IMG/VR virus record: IMGVR_UViG_3300029286_000014 | Length of the DNA stretch: 20,000 nt | Reading direction: 5' to 3' (one strand) | Origin: an uncultured virus (IMG/VR IMGVR_UViG_3300029286_000014) | Lineage: Duplodnaviria; Heunggongvirae; Uroviricota; Caudoviricetes | Translations under genes and position numbers: made by a program | In this document: one piece after another, positions 2,338 through 12,058 of the stretch | Numbering within the stretch: the first letter of the stretch is position 1 | How the letters are laid out: each line of letters starts with the position of its first letter | Notes under the pieces: generated by a model | The model's database searches: none | Told to the model about the DNA's origin: nothing | Seen by the model: only the letters and a program-made list of their open reading frames with translations

Positions 2338-2435
2338 ATCATTTAAGTAAATCACATTTATATGTAAGAGAAAAAACAATGGGGTAATGTAAAAAGAAAA
2401 ATGATATTGGTTCAAATAAATCATTAACAAATTGT

Positions 2436-2470
2436 ACCGGTTATATTTTATATAGCCGGTCTTTTTCTTT
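2436..2470 (+). terminator. Probable intrinsic terminator
   Basis: Stem accggttatat (2436-2446)/atatagccggt (2450-2460) followed by ctttttcttt. Confidence 0.7.
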
Positions 2471-2508
2471 GTAAAAAACAAATATAAAAAATTAGAAGGA
2501 GAAAAGCT

Positions 2509-2718
2509 ATGCCGTTGTTCGAAGTCGCTGTAATTCAAGATCCAACCGTAAGAGAAAGGGAAGATGGGGAATTGGAAAAATTGATCTATGGTCCAGAGAC
2601 CGTGATCGCTGCAAGTGAACAGGCTGCAGGAATGGAAGTGTACACAAAAGCTGTAAAGATTGAAAATATTGAAAATTTTGATCCGAAAAGATTTAAAATT
2701 TTAGTTCGCCCTTTTTAA
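2509..2718 (+). CDS. Small hypothetical protein ending in VRPF (non-frameshifted product)
   Basis: 69-aa ORF with RBS AAGGAG; ends CGC CCT TTT TAA. Confidence 0.85.
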   Translation: MPLFEVAVIQDPTVREREDGELEKLIYGPETVIAASEQAAGMEVYTKAVKIENIENFDPKRFKILVRPF

Positions 2719-2771
2719 GTAGCCTTTCCAACAGTTCTTACTGGTCTATTGGATTTATAAAACGGAAAGGC
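2709..2771 (+). promoter_or_regulatory. Candidate -1 programmed ribosomal frameshift signal
   Basis: Correctly phased X_XXY_YYZ heptamer C_CCT_TTT (2709-2715), 6-nt spacer, perfect 8-bp stem gcctttcc (2722-2729)/ggaaaggc (2764-2771). Confidence 0.7.
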
Positions 2772-3032
2772 ACACAACCAAATTCTTATTGTCATACGAG
2801 AGCTATTTCTGGTTTTTCTGGTTATAGCGGAATTTCTGGTTATATCGGATATTCTGGAAAACCACAAATGATGATCTATAATGGGTCTACAGGATCTACT
2901 GGTCCCAATGGCCCTTGTGGGGAATCTGGAGAATCTGGAACGACAGGAAGATTGGTTGGAAAGGCGAGAGAAGTTTCTATTGTAGAAAAGACAAGCAAAA
3001 AAAGGAGTAAAAGTTTTTCAGTAAATAACTGA
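2715..3032 (+). CDS. Predicted -1 frame extension (105 aa) with Gly-X-Y repeats
   Basis: The -1 frame is open from 2697 to TGA at 3030-3032: LSSLSNSSYWSIGFIKRKGTQPNSYCHTRAISGFSGYSGISGYIGYSGKPQMMIYNGSTGSTGPNGPCGESGESGTTGRLVGKAREVSIVEKTSKKRSKSFSVNN. No ATG before 2868. Confidence 0.65.
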   Translation, partial: LSSLSNSSYWSIGFIKRKGTQPNSYCHTRAISGFSGYSGISGYIGYSGKPQMMIYNGSTGSTGPNGPCGESGESGTTGRLVGKAREVSIVEKTSKKRSKSFSVNN

Positions 3033-3114
3033 AAAACATAGAACCGGCCACGCCTCTATTTTTGTAGTTTAAATATGCGCACCACGGCCGGTCTTTATAA
3101 AAATAACATAGGAG

Positions 3115-3432
3115 GTGATTGTGAATACTGAACCACAAGATGTTTACACAACTGAAAAAAGAACAGTTAGAAGTAAAAGAATAACACCGTCAAATGAACC
3201 ATGCCCTAAATGTGCGAGTATGAGAGCAGATAGAAAGTTATATTTTAAGGGGAATAAAGTCGAAAGAGAATATGGCGATTGTTTTAATAAATTCATAAAT
3301 ATGATTTTAAAATATTCAGAATTTTTTATAAAAGATACTGATTCATACAGTGATCGTAATATAGCAAAAGAGTGCATAGTAAGTAAATGCAAATGTTGTG
3401 GATATATGTGGCCAACTAAACCACTAAGTTGA
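3115..3432 (+). CDS. Hypothetical protein, possible zinc-binding
   Basis: RBS AGGAGG; CPKC and CKCC cysteine pairs. Confidence 0.65.
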   Translation: MIVNTEPQDVYTTEKRTVRSKRITPSNEPCPKCASMRADRKLYFKGNKVEREYGDCFNKFINMILKYSEFFIKDTDSYSDRNIAKECIVSKCKCCGYMWPTKPLS

Positions 3433-4390: not shown

Positions 4391-4392
4391 TT

Positions 4393-4464
4393 ACCCGAAT
4401 AGTTCAATAGTAGAACCTTCCGCTGATAATGGAAAAACGGCAGGTGCGAATCCTCCTTCGGGTA
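4393..4464 (+). tRNA. tRNA-Ile(GAT), atypical T arm
   Basis: Acceptor stem acccgaa/ttcgggt plus discriminator A; D stem gttc/gaac; anticodon stem ttccg/tggaa with loop ctGATaa (GAT 4425-4427); T arm ggcagg-tgcgaat-cctcc. No encoded CCA. Confidence 0.8.
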
Positions 4465-4489
4465 AATATCAAAATTCATAGGAGATTTT

Positions 4490-4803: not shown

Positions 4804-5094
4804 ATGAAAAAAATAGTTATCATAATGTTTTTAATAATTATGTTTCTATTAACAACAACATCAGTTTTAATCGCGTCACCAATTTTTAAAATAGATGCAT
4901 CTTCTTCGTTTAAAGAATTTGAAATAAAAGAATTGCAAATTCAAATAGATCGATATAATTCTTATCATCAAATAGATTTTCGGCAAAAACCAACAAATGC
5001 TCCTGCCCCAGTTCCAGAACCAGCAACAATAATTTTATTGGGTTCAGGAATTATTTTCGTTGGAACTATGGTTCGAAGAAAACCAAAAGGCTGA
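4804..5094 (+). CDS. PEP-CTERM sorting-domain protein
   Basis: N-terminal signal peptide MKKIVIIMFLIIMFLL...; C-terminal APVPEPATIILLGSGIIFVGTMVRRK = VPEP motif + TM helix + basic tail. Confidence 0.85.
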   Translation: MKKIVIIMFLIIMFLLTTTSVLIASPIFKIDASSSFKEFEIKELQIQIDRYNSYHQIDFRQKPTNAPAPVPEPATIILLGSGIIFVGTMVRRKPKG

Positions 5095-5594: not shown

Positions 5595-6071
5595 ATGATT
5601 AAGGCTGCATATACAGGAACGTTTGATCCTTTCACAAAAGGGCATTCCGATATTCTAAGAAGAGCTTCTGGAATTTTTGATGAAGTTCTTGTTGGGGTTT
5701 TAAATAATGCAAATAAGAATTCTATGTTCACAATTTCAGAACGTGTTGATATAGTTGAACATTATTTTATAGATCTTCCAGAAAATATAAGCGTCAAAGG
5801 ATATGACGGAACTTCTTTTAACTTTGTTGCTGAAAATAATGCTAATGTGATAATTAGAGGAATACGAGGAACATTAGATCTTGATATGGAAATGCAATAT
5901 GCAATTATGAACAAAAAATATGCCGGACTTGAAACCATATTACTTTTTAGTGATCTTGAAAAATCAATAATAAGTTCAACATTAATAAAAACACTTTTCA
6001 AATCTGGCGTAAATATTCTCGAATTTGTAAATGAGTATACATACTTAAAAATGAAGGAGAAATTACAATGA
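5595..6071 (+). CDS. coaD: Phosphopantetheine adenylyltransferase
   Basis: YTGTFDPFTKGH (TxGH motif), IIRGIR, MN...LET, ISSTLIK; 158 aa is the typical CoaD length. Confidence 0.88.
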   Translation: MIKAAYTGTFDPFTKGHSDILRRASGIFDEVLVGVLNNANKNSMFTISERVDIVEHYFIDLPENISVKGYDGTSFNFVAENNANVIIRGIRGTLDLDMEMQYAIMNKKYAGLETILLFSDLEKSIISSTLIKTLFKSGVNILEFVNEYTYLKMKEKLQ

Positions 6072-6673
6072 TAGACTTTCATGAAGATATAAAATATACA
6101 CAAATGTTTCTTGGTTTTTGTGGTTTCTACAAAGCAAAGGTTGATGGAATATGGGGGCCTAAAACGAATAAAGCAATGATTGAGTTTGAGATGCTAACTG
6201 AACATATAAAAGATGGTCATTCATTGGTAACTGATTTAAGATCTGAAAATTGTATATGTAGTCTTCACCCCAATGCACAACTTCTTGCTAGAGATTTTTT
6301 ATTAAAGTGTGAAGATTTCCCAAATTTTAAAGTAAAAATAATCAGCGGATTAAGAAGTTACAGGGAACAAAGTATTTTATATGCAAAAGGAAGAACTACA
6401 TCAGGAATTATAGTAACTAATTCTAAAGCTGGTCAATCATATCATAACTTTGGTGTAGCTTTTGATTGTGGGATTTTTTCTAAAAATGGTACTTATTTAA
6501 GTGATGATGAATACTACAAAGAAATCGCAGAGAAAATAAAAGATATAATGCAAATAGATTGGGGTGGTGATTGGGAAACATTTAAAGATTCCCCTCATTA
6601 TCAGTTGATTAATTTACCATCAGTAACAAAAATACGAAAACTATTTGAAAGTGGAAAGGAGTTAATTATATGA
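6068..6673 (+). CDS. Endolysin: peptidoglycan-binding segment + M15 (L-Ala-D-Glu) peptidase
   Basis: VDGIWGPKT PG-binding motif; GLRSYREQSILYAKGRT, SYHNFGVAFD and WGGDW..DSPHYQ zinc-peptidase motifs. Confidence 0.88.
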   Translation: MIDFHEDIKYTQMFLGFCGFYKAKVDGIWGPKTNKAMIEFEMLTEHIKDGHSLVTDLRSENCICSLHPNAQLLARDFLLKCEDFPNFKVKIISGLRSYREQSILYAKGRTTSGIIVTNSKAGQSYHNFGVAFDCGIFSKNGTYLSDDEYYKEIAEKIKDIMQIDWGGDWETFKDSPHYQLINLPSVTKIRKLFESGKELII

Positions 6674-7026
6674 AGATAAAAGTGTGTAACGTTACGAATA
6701 GTAGTTCATGTAGTTTTTTATTAATTGGAAAAAGAGTTACCATTGAAGAAGCAAAAGAAAAAAAATTTAAAAACTGTGTTTTTTATAATGGTGAATATAT
6801 TGTTGATGTAGAGGAAATTATCGAAGATGAAGTACATGACGTAGAAAAATATATTAATATACATAGTTATGATGAAAATTCATTATATGAATCTTTGTTT
6901 GTTGAGCATATTTTTTCTGATGATGAGCCTATGAAAGAAGTTATATCTTTATATGATTTAGTAAAAGGTTTATCTGAAGAAGAATTGAAAAAATTTAAAT
7001 TGATAACTGGAATAGCTATGTGTTAA
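6670..7026 (+). CDS. Hypothetical protein with N-terminal MK..VTNSSS.SF motif
   Basis: MKIKVCNVTNSSSCSFLL resembles a common phage N-terminal motif of unknown function; overlaps the upstream stop. Confidence 0.75.
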   Translation: MKIKVCNVTNSSSCSFLLIGKRVTIEEAKEKKFKNCVFYNGEYIVDVEEIIEDEVHDVEKYINIHSYDENSLYESLFVEHIFSDDEPMKEVISLYDLVKGLSEEELKKFKLITGIAMC

Positions 7027-7036
7027 GGAACCATAA

Positions 7037-7261
7037 ATGCGCGTTTTAAAAATTGATATGGAAATAGAAACATGCAACGAATGCGTTTATTGCAGATTGA
7101 CATCACCATCTCATCCTGCATTAGACGTATTTTTTTGTTCATATGAAAAATCTTTTTCTTCCGAAACATCCCAGCCTTTAATCGCAAGAATATCAACTAC
7201 AGCAGTCCCCCACATGCCTACACCTTCCTGGTGCCCACTACCAAATAAAAGGAGGATATAA
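7037..7261 (+). CDS. Small Cys-rich hypothetical protein
   Basis: CxxCxxC...C...PSWCPL pattern; RBS AAGGA. Confidence 0.7.
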   Translation: MRVLKIDMEIETCNECVYCRLTSPSHPALDVFFCSYEKSFSSETSQPLIARISTTAVPHMPTPSWCPLPNKRRI

Positions 7262-7654
7262 ATGACTCTACATGCAAGTAATATAGTAAATACTTCAGGA
7301 ATGTCATATTTAGTTTCATATGACAAGAAAAAAGAAAATCTTTCTGTTTTATTTTTAGACTTTTTTGTGGATTTTATTGAAAAAAAAGGAAACGTTTTTT
7401 TAAATCAAGACTATGAAATAATTGAGAACATTTCTGAGCATTATGAAGAATGTTTAAAAGAAGAAGAACTCTTCGAACACAAAGATAGACAGTACATAGA
7501 ATACTTGATAGATAAAATCAATCTATGTAAGAAAGAACAAAAAAAAGGAAAAACTGTTATAAAAATAGTGGTTAGTAATGGAGACGAAATTGTTTCAGCT
7601 ATCTTAGAAAAAGGAAATAAATTAAAAGAGATTAAACTTATAGAAGGAGATTAA
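7262..7654 (+). CDS. Hypothetical protein
   Basis: RBS AGGAGG, 130 aa, tightly packed between neighbours. Confidence 0.75.
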   Translation: MTLHASNIVNTSGMSYLVSYDKKKENLSVLFLDFFVDFIEKKGNVFLNQDYEIIENISEHYEECLKEEELFEHKDRQYIEYLIDKINLCKKEQKKGKTVIKIVVSNGDEIVSAILEKGNKLKEIKLIEGD

Positions 7655-7655
7655 T

Positions 7656-8669
7656 ATGAGTTACATTGAAAGTCAAAAGTTAAAAGAAATTCTTTGTAAA
7701 ATGAATAAGCTTAAAGTTTTAGTCATTGGTGATTTAATGTTAGACGAATATATCTGGGGAAAAGTTGAAAGAATTTCCCCAGAAGCTCCAGTTCCAATTG
7801 TTGATGTTGTGAAAGAAGAAATAAAGTTGGGAGGCGCAGGAAACGTTGTTAGAAACTTAGCAAGTTTAGGATGCACAGTTTACATTGGTTCTGTTATTGG
7901 TATTGATGATGCTGGTGATAAAGTTAGAAAACTTTTGAGAAAAGAAAAAACAAATCTAAAATTTTTAATGAATGATGATCGAAGACAAACAACTGTTAAA
8001 ACAAGACTGATGGCACATACACAACAACTTGTAAGAATTGATAGAGAAGACAAATACGCAATTGATAAAAATCAAAGAGATCATATTCTCTATACGTTGG
8101 GGGAAGAAGAAAAAAATATTGATGCAATAGTTATTTCAGACTACAACAAAGGTGTTGTTAATGCCAAATTAATAAGTGAAATTATTAAATTCACAAAAGA
8201 TGGGCGTAGAATTCCAATAATTGCTGATCCAAAGAAAAACTTCTTGAATTACAAAGGAGTTGATATTTTAACTCCTAATTTGAAGGAACTAGGTTTATAT
8301 AGTGGAAACATAGTTGAGTCAGAAATTGATGTTGTTGAGACTTCACGAAAAGTTATTGAATCCTCAGAATTAAAAGCTATCCTTGTTACAAAAGGACCTC
8401 AAGGAATGAGTTTAATTGCTAAAGATTTTGCATATGATATTCCAACATTTGCTCAAGAAGTTTACGATGTTACAGGAGCTGGTGATACTGTGATTGCATG
8501 TTTTACATTGGCACTGTTATCAGGAGCTTCAACATACGAGGCAGCATTAATATCAAACGTAGCTGCTGGAATTGTTGTAGGTGAAGTTGGTGCAGCAGTT
8601 GTCACACAAGAAGAACTATTGAAGAAATGTATTGGTATAATTAGTATTGAAGGAAAAAAAGATGAATGA
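7656..8669 (+). CDS. rfaE1: D-glycero-D-manno-heptose-7-phosphate kinase (HldE/RfaE domain I, PfkB family)
   Basis: VIGDLMLDEYIWGKVERISPEAPVP, GGAGNV, ISDYNKG, LTPNLKE and DVTGAGDT signatures. No fused nucleotidyltransferase domain. Confidence 0.9.
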   Translation: MSYIESQKLKEILCKMNKLKVLVIGDLMLDEYIWGKVERISPEAPVPIVDVVKEEIKLGGAGNVVRNLASLGCTVYIGSVIGIDDAGDKVRKLLRKEKTNLKFLMNDDRRQTTVKTRLMAHTQQLVRIDREDKYAIDKNQRDHILYTLGEEEKNIDAIVISDYNKGVVNAKLISEIIKFTKDGRRIPIIADPKKNFLNYKGVDILTPNLKELGLYSGNIVESEIDVVETSRKVIESSELKAILVTKGPQGMSLIAKDFAYDIPTFAQEVYDVTGAGDTVIACFTLALLSGASTYEAALISNVAAGIVVGEVGAAVVTQEELLKKCIGIISIEGKKDE

Positions 8670-9150
8670 AATTCTAATAGTAGCCCCACACATTGATGAT
8701 GAGGTTATTTCATCTTTTGAGATTTTAGAAACAAAAGTATTAACAACAATTATATATACAGATTGTGAAGATTGGTCTGATGTTAGAAGAAGCGAAATTG
8801 AAAAAATACGGGGTATATTCAATATAAAAAATATTCTTTTTTTCAGTGATCTCACCAATTATTATGTAGATTTTATGACAAAAATAAAATATACTTATTA
8901 TTTTCCAGATCCAATATATGAAACTCATCCTGAACATAGAAAACAGGGATATATTGGGGAACAAATGTTTAGAGATGGAAAAGATGTAGTATTTTACAAC
9001 ACAACAATGACAGCACCATATATACATAAAGTTAAAAATTGGCAACGAAAGAAAGAAATTTTAAATAAATTATACCCAAGTCAGAAAAGTTTATGGGAAT
9101 ACGAACATAAGTATTTTCTGTGGGAAGGAAGATGTAAATATCTTCCATAA
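8662..9150 (+). CDS. PIG-L/LmbE-family de-N-acetylase
   Basis: VAPHIDDE and HPEH metal-binding motifs, C-terminal YPSQ. ATG at 8662 overlaps the upstream stop. Confidence 0.78.
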   Translation: MNEILIVAPHIDDEVISSFEILETKVLTTIIYTDCEDWSDVRRSEIEKIRGIFNIKNILFFSDLTNYYVDFMTKIKYTYYFPDPIYETHPEHRKQGYIGEQMFRDGKDVVFYNTTMTAPYIHKVKNWQRKKEILNKLYPSQKSLWEYEHKYFLWEGRCKYLP

Positions 9151-9161
9151 CAGATATAGGT

Positions 9162-9175
9162 TATATATATTAATT
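9162..9175 (+). promoter_or_regulatory. TATATATATTRATT motif, copy 1
   Basis: TATATATATTAATT 25 nt upstream of the ATG at 9201. Confidence 0.6.
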
Positions 9176-9200
9176 TATAAGTAAAATAAAAGAGGAGAAA

Positions 9201-9602
9201 ATGGACAAAAAAATTTTAGATTCATTTAAGCTTGAATTTTTTAAGGAAATAAAGGAATACAAAAGAGTTGAGGAAAAGATTAGGGATCCAAGGTGTACAA
9301 AATTTACACTGACTGATGGCAAAACAAAATACGCCATTGTCGGGGCACTTCCATTAAAAGGTGTAGGAGTAAACATGATTCTCGCTGTACACCAAGATCA
9401 TGATGGAAATGGTATTTTGAAAGATGCTTCAGATCTGTTGATAAAAAAATATAAAACCACAATCATTGTTGATGTCGAAAAAACATCTCCTGAAATCCAA
9501 AAATATTTGAATGCAGGATTTGTTAAAGATGATACGGAAATAAGAAAAAATCAAATAAGATTGGTGAAAGAGAAAGGAGGCTCTTGTGAAAAAGAAAGTT
9601 AA
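9201..9602 (+). CDS. Hypothetical protein, possible GNAT-fold acetyltransferase
   Basis: LAVHQDHDGNGI and KYLNAGF resemble GNAT motifs A and B; RBS GAGGAG. Confidence 0.5.
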   Translation: MDKKILDSFKLEFFKEIKEYKRVEEKIRDPRCTKFTLTDGKTKYAIVGALPLKGVGVNMILAVHQDHDGNGILKDASDLLIKKYKTTIIVDVEKTSPEIQKYLNAGFVKDDTEIRKNQIRLVKEKGGSCEKES

Positions 9603-9885
9603 AGAGATAACGATCTTTGTTTTATTAATATCTTTTATGTTGTTATCAGAGGCATGCTCAACTGTTAAAAAAGCTTTCAATCCAGATCCTGGATTAAAAG
9701 CTAAAGTTGAGAATGTTCTTCTTAAAAAAAATTATTACGTTATTGTAACTAATAAGGGAACATTTATATGTGGAAATTGTGATTATGTTATACATAGTCA
9801 GAAATACTATAGATTTTACTTAGAAGGAAATAAAGTTATAAAAATGGAAATAATTAAGGAAACAAAAAAATCAAAAAGGAGTTAA
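9586..9885 (+). CDS. Putative lipoprotein
   Basis: Basic N-terminus, hydrophobic stretch, then ..LSEAC. GTG start with RBS AGGAGG. Confidence 0.6.
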   Translation: MKKKVKEITIFVLLISFMLLSEACSTVKKAFNPDPGLKAKVENVLLKKNYYVIVTNKGTFICGNCDYVIHSQKYYRFYLEGNKVIKMEIIKETKKSKRS

Positions 9886-9886
9886 A

Positions 9887-10123
9887 ATGAAAGCATTTTT
9901 TGGATTGTCATTAATTTTTGGGGGAATTATTCTTGGGGTGTATGTTGGTGTGTGGGTTATGTTTGTTGGTGGAATTGTTCAATGTATTGAACAAGTAAGA
10001 GCAGAAAATATGCAAGCAACAATTCTGGCATATGGTATCCTCAAAATAATATCTGCTGGATTTATTGGGTGGGGAACTGCTATTCTTTTAGTTATTCCAG
10101 GTGTTGCAGTATTGAAAAAATGA
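9887..10123 (+). CDS. Small two-TM membrane protein
   Basis: Two Gly-rich hydrophobic segments; RBS AAGGAG. Confidence 0.75.
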   Translation: MKAFFGLSLIFGGIILGVYVGVWVMFVGGIVQCIEQVRAENMQATILAYGILKIISAGFIGWGTAILLVIPGVAVLKK

Positions 10124-10132
10124 GGAGAATAT

Positions 10133-10459
10133 ATGAGAATGTGGAATGTTCCGACAAAAATGATGTGTAGACAACATCTATTGGGAGAGCATCTAGAAAC
10201 ACATATGTTTCACTCATCAATTCTTCAAGGTAGAAAGATTACAGGATTTATAACAAATGGTCTTGTTGAAACTGACAAGATCAAAGAAAGACATGATGCG
10301 CTTGTTGAAGAAATGATTTCTCGAGGGTATAACCATAAGACTCCTATGGAAGAAAACAATTTTCCTCAACAAGGTCGGGTTGATATTTCTAAAAACATTA
10401 ACATATTAATAAATAAATGTGTTAATTGTAAAGAAAGACATATAAGGCTTGTGCAATAA
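10133..10459 (+). CDS. Pyrimidine-dimer DNA glycosylase / endonuclease V (DenV-like) family protein
   Basis: MRMW...CRQHLLGEH.E.H and RHDALVEEMISRGYNHKTP patterns of this family. Confidence 0.75.
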   Translation: MRMWNVPTKMMCRQHLLGEHLETHMFHSSILQGRKITGFITNGLVETDKIKERHDALVEEMISRGYNHKTPMEENNFPQQGRVDISKNINILINKCVNCKERHIRLVQ

Positions 10460-10503
10460 GCCTTATTTTTTTTATAAATTTTATTTAAGAAAAGGAGAAT
10501 AGT

Positions 10504-11097
10504 GTGTATATAATTGATCTTGACCCTATGTTTTTTAAACTTTTTAAAAAGGTCGGTGCTTCCTATACTGGAAATATGACACAAGGAGATGATATTTCTG
10601 CTCTCCTTTCATTAACAAATGCATTTAGACCAAAAAGATTTTTAGAAATTGGTGTAAACCTCGGGCATACCGCAAAACAGATTCTTCAATACTCTCCATT
10701 CATTGAAACATATATTGGTGTTGATATTCCCTTTGATCAAAAAGAAAAAACTTTAGGAGATCAAAGTAAGGAAGTTCCAGAAACCGCAGGAATTGTATGT
10801 ACAGACAAAAGATTAACAACAATATTAAGACCTTATGGCGTTAAAAATATAGATCCAGCAGAAATAGGAACATTCGATTTTATTTTTATTGATGGGGATC
10901 ACTCTGTAGAAGGAATAACTATTGATACCGAATTTTCAGAAAAAATATTGAATCCTGGGGGAGTAATTGTTTGGCATGATTATGTTTGTTTGCCACTTGT
11001 TTCAGCTTATTTAGATCTTTATAATGATACAAAATGTGATAATCGTCTTTGGTGGATTAAAGGAACATCTTTAGCATTTAGAATTGGAACATTATAA
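10504..11097 (+). CDS. Class I SAM-dependent methyltransferase (Methyltransf_24-like)
   Basis: [18 protein letters not shown] and [12 protein letters not shown] motifs. Confidence 0.85.
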
Positions 11098-11107
11098 GGA
11101 GAAATAT

Positions 11108-12058
11108 ATGGGAAAAAGAATTTTGGTAACTGGAGGATGTGGATTTTTAGGAAGTCATTTGTGTGAAAGATTATTAAATGAAGAGAATGAAGTAATTTGT
11201 TTAGATAATTTGATGACAAGTTCAAAGAATAATATTAGACATTTATTAGACAATCACTATTTTGAATTTATAAGACATGATGTTACAGTTCCAATAAAAT
11301 TAGAAGTTGACCAAATATACAATTTAGCTTGTCCTGCTTCTCCCATTCATTATCAGAAAGACCCAGTTAAAACAATCAGAACATCAGTTATGGGTGCTAT
11401 AAACATGCTCGATTTAGCTAAAGAAACAGGAGCAAGAATCCTTCAAACTTCAACATCAGAAGTATATGGTGATCCTATTGAACATCCCCAAAAAGAAACA
11501 TATTGGGGGAATGTAAATCCTATTGGAATAAGAAGTTGTTACGATGAAGGAAAAAGAGTTGCAGAGACTTTGTTTTATGATTATAATAGAAACTGGAATG
11601 TTGATATAAGAGTTGTAAGAATATTCAATACTTATGGACCAAGAATGCATCCAAATGATGGAAGAGTAGTTTCAAATTTTATTGTCCAGGCTCTAAAAGG
11701 AGAAGACCTAACAATTTATGGGGATGGAAAACAAACAAGATGTTTTTGTTATGTTTCTGATACTGTTGATGGACTTATAAAAACTATGGAATCAGATTAT
11801 ATTTATCCAATAAATATAGGAAATCCTGATGAAAAGTCTATAATATCATTTGCAAACATAATAATAGATTTAATAAATCCAAAACTTAAAATAAGTTGTA
11901 AAACACCACTTCCAAAAGATGATCCAATGCAAAGAATGCCAGATATAGATATTGCAGGAAAAGTTTTAAAATGGAAACCAAGAGTTGATTTAAGAATAGG
12001 TTTGAGATTAACAATAGAATATTTTGGAAATAAGTTAAGTAAAGGAGATATGAATTAA
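11108..12058 (+). CDS. UDP-glucuronic acid decarboxylase (UDP-xylose synthase), extended SDR
   Basis: [44 protein letters not shown] and [17 protein letters not shown] precedes the ATG at 11108. Confidence 0.92.

Follow-up and report, generated by a model that had tools for sequence, protein, structure and literature searches.

The stretch of DNA analysed here, called the window below, comprises 20,000 nucleotides (nt) from an uncultured virus of the Caudoviricetes (Duplodnaviria; Heunggongvirae; Uroviricota; IMG/VR record IMGVR_UViG_3300029286_000014), and this report concerns one of its genes, at positions 2509–3032, which we propose to be decoded in two ways through a -1 ribosomal frameshift. 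The 5' part of the gene is an open reading frame (ORF) on the plus strand for a protein of 69 amino acids (aa), which begins MPLFEV and ends LVRPF, with GTT CGC CCT TTT TAA as its final codons. These codons contain a heptamer of the X_XXY_YYZ type in the phase of the ORF, a stem-loop lies a short distance downstream, and the -1 frame, shut by a TAA at 2694–2696, is open over 2697–3032 (111 codons), where it ends with a TGA. The features of the gene and of its borders are given in Table 1. Shine-Dalgarno motifs like that of the 69-aa ORF are present at 20 of the 27 ORF starts in the window.

Table 1. Positions in the window of the features of the gene at 2509–3032 and of its borders
Feature	Position	Strand	Details
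Terminator-like hairpin, ACCGG...CCGGT followed by a T-run	2436–2464	+	11-pair stem; 5' edge of the unit
Shine-Dalgarno motif AAGGAG	2496–2501	+	7 nt ahead of ATG 2509
Zero-frame ORF ('VRPF' protein), predicted short product	2509–2718	+	Small beta-alpha-beta-alpha-beta domain (predicted)
Slippery heptamer C_CCT_TTT	2709–2715	+	In zero-frame phase (X_XXY_YYZ)
-1 extension	2715–3032	+	105 codons, TTA 2715 to AAC 3027–3029, then TGA 3030–3032; predicted 174-aa long product
Zero-frame stop TAA	2716–2718	+	Directly 3' of the heptamer; with 2719–2721 forms the 6-nt spacer
Stem-loop, putative frameshift stimulator	2719–2773	+	Outer stem 2722–2729/2764–2771, two inner hairpins
First Gly-X-Y block	2811–2864	+	6 triplets, upstream of the first possible start codon
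Second Gly-X-Y block	2883–2954	+	8 triplets
Two hairpins 3' of the -1 stop	3013–3098	+	Fold z -4.08; the second is 3044–3096

A first-pass annotation of this DNA had described the end of the 69-aa ORF, the heptamer, the stem and the open -1 frame, and all four were confirmed at every coordinate. Its lengths of 69 and 174 aa for the two products were also arithmetically correct, the longer being made up of 69 residues plus the 105 codons of 2715–3029. The outer stem pairs gcctttcc (2722–2729) with ggaaaggc (2764–2771), and both this stem and an inner cagt/actg hairpin (2732–2735/2740–2743) are present in the minimum-free-energy fold of 2716–2790, which has an energy of -16.7 kcal/mol and a z of -3.25 and was matched in stability by only one of 200 shuffled sequences. 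The stable structure follows the heptamer at a distance of 6 nt, within the 5–9 nt set for a downstream stimulatory structure. A scan against Rfam found no frameshift element and gave sub-threshold matches only.

Starting from the heptamer, the -1 frame runs for 107 codons, compared with 2–34 codons from the 62 other in-phase heptamers in the window. Among 592 off-frame open runs within the window genes none is longer than 47 codons, and composition alone would give 104 open codons with a probability of about 2.4e-4. The earliest ATG, GTG or TTG in this frame is the ATG at 2868, which is codon 53 of the 107, and no Shine-Dalgarno motif was found at it. A codon-usage log-likelihood trained on 3732 codons of window genes scored 2719–3029 at +25.3 in the -1 frame, as against -43.1 and -53.3 in the other two frames. 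Per codon, the -1 frame scores 0.245, near the 0.256 of the 69-aa ORF in its own frame (+17.7 in total), and the score is positive on either side of ATG 2868 (+10.0 for 2719–2867 and +15.2 for 2868–3029). What follows the heptamer is a long -1 ORF, extending 105 codons past the site, with coding character and with no start of its own.

The glycine repeats that the first-pass annotation had seen before and after ATG 2868 correspond to the two Gly-X-Y blocks of Table 1. The Pfam Collagen model (PF01391) matches the window tail with 24.6 bits (E-value (E) 2.1e-5), under its cut-off of 27.2 bits. A natural allele of the gene, found in lake metagenome run X8 and matching P0003, has 2790–2933 (144 nt) exchanged in-frame for 114 nt; its Gly-X-Y region is 30 nt different in length, and it has eight substitutions in 2643–2678 and none listed in 2679–2761. 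Contigs of lake and sediment metagenomes pile up on the GYSG-repeat DNA at 2790–2867, where their summed depth reaches 243 in one run, so that many other genes of these habitats appear to carry the GYSG repeat. Public gene calls present 2868–3032 as a separate 54-aa protein (P0162) on three contigs, a call that probably misreads the frameshift tail.

A first search gave three close relatives of the 69-aa protein, and a profile search with it retrieved 814 clusters (50% identity) at E <= 0.001 and 261 at E <= 1e-10. On this similarity, the 69-aa protein is assigned to a large family from uncultured phages. Typical members are 64–70 aa long; 24 of 160 end at RPF, and 80 of 160 end at RPF plus one residue. 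No match to the 69-aa protein was found in Pfam or among the PHROGs, and when 90 members were compared with the databases, PHROGs and NCBIfam gave no match and Pfam gave one, which is spurious. Among 50,697 GenBank phage records, neither a DNA search with 2400–3120 nor a protein search with the window protein (P0001) gave a match, and a member of high G+C (GC) content matched only two records of one 735-kb uncultured megaphage. A scan of genome contigs found no relative, but it used only the exact pattern MPLFEVAV and is hence weak. In the full-text literature, with subscription journals outside the coverage, we found no description of the family or of a phage gene with such a site. The idea of the first-pass annotation that this is possibly a new recoded gene family fits, because the models of Pfam, PHROG and NCBIfam all fail to match.

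For the comparison of sites, homologue DNA was obtained from 14 metagenome loci and 65 IMG/VR loci. We left out L002 and L003, which represent the window's own phage, L063, L074 and L081, which have truncated or aberrant ends, and L001, a candidate relative from the first IMG/VR scan that was rejected as spurious (31% identity over 49 residues; it adjoins a helicase). After identical proteins had been collapsed there were 63 distinct members, the window counted.

Homologues with a broken heptamer or with no open -1 frame had been named by the first-pass annotation as what would speak against frameshifting, and the comparison gave the opposite outcome. The terminal RPF codons conserve CCCTTTT or CCCTTTC, that is, C_CCT_TTY in phase, in 58 of the 63 distinct members, whose contigs range from 27 to 69% GC. 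At the site, arginine is CGC in 60 of the 63, proline is CCT in 59, and phenylalanine is TTC in 32 and TTT in 31; CCCTTTC, with a run of three T, accounts for 29 of the 58 heptamers. Elsewhere in the same genes the choice of codons is different: proline is CCT in 59 of 60 cases at the site versus 24 of 252 elsewhere, and arginine is CGC in 60 of 63 versus 75 of 149. Past the zero-frame stop, the -1 frame is open for a median of 68 codons and for at least 30 codons in 58 of the 63 members, in line with the open frame expected by the first-pass annotation, whereas for the +1 frame the median is 21 codons, with at least 30 in 24 of the 63. Of 15 loci examined for what comes next, 12 have the start of the following gene no more than about 70 nt from where the -1 ORF ends. 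Where the heptamer has been lost, as in L013/L076 (CCCCTTC) and L014, the protein-like -1 ORF has been lost too; L079 is a divergent exception. Both the site and the -1 ORF are kept beyond what the protein sequence requires.

Downstream structure was assessed on the 70-nt stretch that starts 3 nt past the heptamer, with controls taken from the same loci. The homologues gave a mean z of -1.66 (n = 57, with 18 of 57 below -2) versus -0.19 for the controls (n = 206, with 6% below -2), so that the downstream stem looked for in homologues is enriched by folding z (Mann–Whitney p 9e-9). Many of the homologue stems start 6–7 nt past the heptamer, and they differ in sequence while their pairing is intact. 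When minimum-free-energy folds were begun at the end of the heptamer, the first pair lay at 4–9 nt in only 23 of 57 loci; the z-score test is preferred over the position of the first pair because spacer bases get paired.

In most relatives, the -1 products have a C-terminal motif in common, which is roughly V-x-Y-x-x-A-P-x-G-x-x-x-[YF]-x-[AG]-x-x-L. Furthermore, homologues exist in which domain and tail are naturally fused in-frame, with lengths of 141–167 aa. The C-terminal 40 residues of 51 -1 products were made into a tail profile, for which the window, loci reaching past the end of their contig, heptamer-less loci, short ones and L012 were left out; searched against 551 targets, the profile found the fused homologues P0120 (E 2.9e-8), P0011 (E 3e-4) and P0009 (E 2e-3). 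That the domain and the -1 tail would form one polypeptide, and that the -1 frame would be translated, is supported at the level of sequence.

The megaphage LR756501 (735 kb, 33% GC) has a homologue that ends VIVRPF and possesses the identical site, gtg CGC CCT TTT TAA. Its -1 ORF of about 190 codons contains long Gly-X-Y runs, and the Pfam Collagen model matches with 35.5 bits, above the cut-off. Judged by its predicted products, LR756501 is an independent parallel of a frameshift combined with a collagen-repeat tail. Short Gly-rich runs are present in the -1 frame of L007 and L032, and most family members are without Gly-X-Y repeats. At 197–658 of the 1-kb contig L012, the -1 ORF extends 135 codons past the stop and encodes a domain of the uracil-DNA glycosylase (UDG) superfamily that replaces the family tail (Pfam E 3.5e-8; profile positions 48–125 of 141, the C-terminal two-thirds). 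A predicted protein of 972 aa, P0021, matches the central part of the family profile 14 times in tandem, each time only partially, and looks like an unrelated tandem repeat.

Computation bears out the site, the structure and the open frame, shows that all three are conserved in the family, and finds that the -1 frame reads like coding sequence; we regard it as very probable that the gene contains a conserved -1 programmed frameshift giving the predicted 69-aa and 174-aa products. According to this proposal, 2509–3032 would be one gene with two decodings. Most ribosomes would make the 69-aa protein and stop at the TAA at 2716, and a fraction would slip by -1 at C_CCT_TTT, where the transfer RNAs (tRNAs) for proline on CCT and for phenylalanine on TTT would re-pair to CCC and TTT. 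The stem-loop 6 nt downstream and the stop codon that follows the heptamer would hold the ribosome at the site; across the family, the stop lies within 0–1 codons of the site in most members and may be an additional stimulator. Shifted ribosomes would read the -1 frame from 2715 to the TGA at 3030 and produce the 174-aa protein, composed of the shared N-terminal domain and a glycine-rich, partly Gly-X-Y tail of 105 residues. We infer that slippage occurs, with some efficiency. What is supported is a new family of recoded genes, with a mechanism of textbook type.

Several observations weigh against this proposal. The ORFs of the AT-rich window contain 63 in-phase X_XXY_YYZ heptamers per 4694 codons, and an in-phase heptamer by itself is not beyond chance there. 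The z of the window stem is only -0.89 when it is folded in a 101-nt frame. The synonymous codon bias at the site yields Fisher p values of 1.7e-7 to 9e-33 per GC class, which overstate independence because the loci are kin. RNAalifold gave a consensus of 0 pairs on 15 downstream regions because the stems vary in length and position; since no consensus structure can be aligned, the support for the stem comes from per-sequence energies. L028 (TCCTTTT) and L070 (TTCTTTT) have an imperfect heptamer and yet a motif-bearing -1 ORF, and 22 of the 58 heptamer-bearing loci have NTGA, with a start codon overlapping the TGA stop, where termination-reinitiation is possible. As to the tail, the family C-terminal profile did not match that of the window, whose homology to the family tail motif is not demonstrable by sequence comparison, and a search for relatives of the 54-aa ORF among predicted proteins of 29–95 aa matched only the ORF itself. 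In pairwise comparison the window tail matches the megaphage tail with E 0.004 and the L007 tail with E 0.013, similarities that are confined to the Gly-X-Y repeats, so that the tails share an architecture and not demonstrably an ancestry.

Four other explanations were weighed. The least unlikely of them, which we still consider very improbable, is that the region holds two separate genes, the 69-aa ORF and the 54-aa ORF from ATG 2868, and that heptamer and stem are coincidental. Gene callers do report the 54-aa ORF on three contigs, in-phase heptamers are common in the window, and a promoter-like match is present at 2855–2882, although two such matches were found versus 3.7 expected and the -10 element ends past the ATG. 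This ATG has no Shine-Dalgarno motif, and the 150 nt before it are open, score +10.0 in codon usage and encode Gly-X-Y. The heptamer and the start-less -1 ORFs are conserved family-wide and in-frame fused homologues are known, which also argues against two genes.

Slightly less likely still is slippage of RNA polymerase on the T-run CCCTTTTT, by which messenger RNAs one base longer or shorter would join the two frames. There are five consecutive T at 2712–2716, and the same two nested products would be expected; however, known transcriptional slippage needs longer homopolymers, and 29 of the 58 members have CCCTTTC with only three T. Polymerase slippage would also leave unexplained the phase-specific selection for CGC CCT and a stem-loop at ribosomal spacing.

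About as unlikely is termination-reinitiation at the stop of the 69-aa ORF, which would give the tail as a separate protein. An ATG, GTG or TTG overlaps the TGA stop in the 22 homologues mentioned above, but such an overlap is an automatic consequence of a TGA stop, and the other 36 of the 58 loci, the window and 35 others, have TAA or TAG with no start codon nearby. The first start is absent or lies beyond 25% of the extension in 24 of the 58. Thus, coupling is not the general mechanism, and it may contribute in the TGA group; it would account neither for synonymous codons being constrained at CGC CCT nor for the fused homologues. The least probable explanation, a broken gene or assembly error in which an ancestral ORF of about 170 aa was disrupted by a 1-nt indel, could draw on the fused homologues of 141–167 aa, but 58 of 63 independent loci show this arrangement, as do three assemblies of the window phage, the break is always at the same conserved heptamer directly before a stop, and of the 160 family proteins examined the majority finish with RPF or with a single residue after it.

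Among phages, the known programmed frameshifts are mainly those of tail chaperones and of a few capsid genes. In the lambda G/GT type, the tail assembly chaperone is subject to a -1 frameshift, and its gene lies between those of the tail tube and the tape measure. As in that system, the gene described here has a short and a C-terminally extended product predicted from one start, a heptamer in phase shortly before the short ORF ends, and an arrangement conserved across many phages. In contrast, chaperones are about twice the size of the present domain, which has no Pfam or PHROG match (0 of 90 members hit a PHROG). A tail chaperone was rejected as an identity for the gene, as its neighbours in the window, in 15 metagenome loci and in the IMG/VR loci examined are not tail genes; the sheath gene of the window is 15 kb off and on the other strand. 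The first-pass annotation had already remarked that no tail genes stand beside the gene, and the neighbours in the window and in its relatives bear this out.

In T7 10A/10B, a -1 shift near the 3' end of the capsid gene adds a tail to some of the copies, and the major head protein of Lactobacillus phage A2 is reportedly another capsid protein made with a frameshift. These resemble our proposal in that the shift lies near the 3' end and gives a tailed fraction, with two forms at a set ratio, but here the 69-aa domain has no capsid fold and only some of the relatives are in head or packaging modules. SPP1 gp12 is a small collagen-like phage protein, and proteins of its type share with the window product the small size and short Gly-X-Y runs that could trimerise; in the gene described here, however, the Gly-X-Y runs would be reached by frameshifting alone, and the window tail is under the Pfam Collagen cut-off. 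The preprint bioRxiv 10.1101/2024.10.16.618579 gives C_CCU_UUU as the -1 slippery site of West Nile virus. The NS1' site of West Nile/Japanese encephalitis virus has the same heptamer and a downstream structure, whereas it belongs to a eukaryotic RNA virus, has a pseudoknot as stimulator and concerns unrelated proteins.

AlphaFold2 predicts the 69-aa domain as beta-alpha-beta-alpha-beta, with a mean predicted local distance difference test (pLDDT) score of 89.6, and the domain is modelled as a small acidic alpha/beta fold outside known families. Foldseek found nothing for it in the PDB or BFVD at E <= 0.001. The weak match was to a PurS-like fold (E 0.06, template-modelling (TM) score 0.45), and PurS was also the best in VIA (Z 6.8, root-mean-square deviation 2.9 over 63 residues), a value within that tool's 'common arrangement' range, as are the Z of 6.0–6.5 to the N-terminal part of a eukaryotic large-subunit ribosomal protein. 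A sequence profile search of the PDB gave a best E of only 0.3, and the ESM Atlas gave 'hypothetical protein' clusters only. A complex prediction with three copies of the domain scored 0.01, which has no bearing either way. In the AlphaFold2 model of the fused relative P0011, the tail has a pLDDT of 53–62 and no secondary structure, and is predicted to be disordered. Given a disordered tail with a conserved end motif, the frameshift would fix how much of the domain is made free and how much with a tail for tethering or oligomerising, a function that is weakly inferred.

The genes beside members of the family vary. In the window the neighbour is a PurZ-like gene. A gp32 single-strand-binding protein (SSB) is encoded directly upstream in L006/L007 and an SSB beside the gene in L032; a Sak4-type protein is encoded upstream in L047 and L056 and two genes upstream in L008, and a RecT-like protein directly upstream in L034–L037. 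Other neighbours are a helicase, primase-helicase or polymerase (L005, L072, L064 and L075) and a portal or large terminase (L020, L033, L028, L066, L060, L038, L078 and L013). That the gene is repeatedly found next to those for single-strand annealing or binding proteins gives a lead for function and not a finding, and we have little confidence in assigning any particular function to the products.

At its borders, the gene is enclosed by hairpins. The upstream one closes the PurZ-like gene and is terminator-like; its 3' arm, CCGGTCTTT, recurs within the window only at 3088–3096, in the hairpin at 3044–3096, which probably ends the transcription unit. The two hairpins bracket 2509–3032 as one cassette-like unit. 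The abiF RNA model of Rfam, one of the sub-threshold matches, scores 30.4 bits against 3044–3092, with a threshold of 37 bits.

The PurZ-like gene, at 1210–2337, encodes a homologue of adenylosuccinate synthetase. Among the PHROGs it best matches the PurZ-type '2-aminooxy adenylosuccinate synthetase' (E 3e-51), a hint that 2-aminoadenine may take the place of adenine in the phage. Upstream of it, the ORF at 260–1201 matches a PHROG of unknown function. On the other side of the frameshift gene, the window encodes a tRNA-Ile with the anticodon GAT (4392–4465) and a 96-aa ORF (4804–5094) with a C-terminal PEP-CTERM motif (26.9 bits versus a Pfam cut-off of 20.7), which is unusual in a phage. The genes of 5595–12058 are predicted to encode a cytidylyltransferase, an M15 endolysin, a pfkB kinase, a GNAT protein, a DenV-like pyrimidine dimer glycosylase, a methyltransferase and an NAD epimerase/dehydratase, and are read from these matches as a run of sugar and nucleotide-modification genes.

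If the proposed frameshift is real, it adds a widespread and unannotated recoded family, in which gene callers currently see a 69-aa ORF plus a 54-aa one that is spurious. The slippery site and its stem-loops occur in approximately sixty natural versions, from 27 to 69% GC, which would provide material on what bacterial -1 sites require. Frameshift predictors are currently dominated by chaperone examples, according to PMC10885494, and the family would be useful for training them. We offer a wider view tentatively, holding it to be somewhat less likely than its opposite: that this recoded family, with at least 814 clusters and almost absent from sequenced cultured phages, Pfam, PHROGs and NCBIfam, may be among the largest in phages outside the tail chaperones, and that its C_CCT_TTY frameshift may determine whether a small globular domain stays free or carries a disordered or collagen-like tether that ends in a conserved docking motif. 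The gene would then be a self-contained cassette moving between unrelated phages, and its frequent position beside RecT, Sak4 and gp32 would suggest an adaptor in replication or recombination whose action is set by the ratio of the two forms. If the expression of a small protein in two forms is indeed kept across very different phages, its function would be worth finding.

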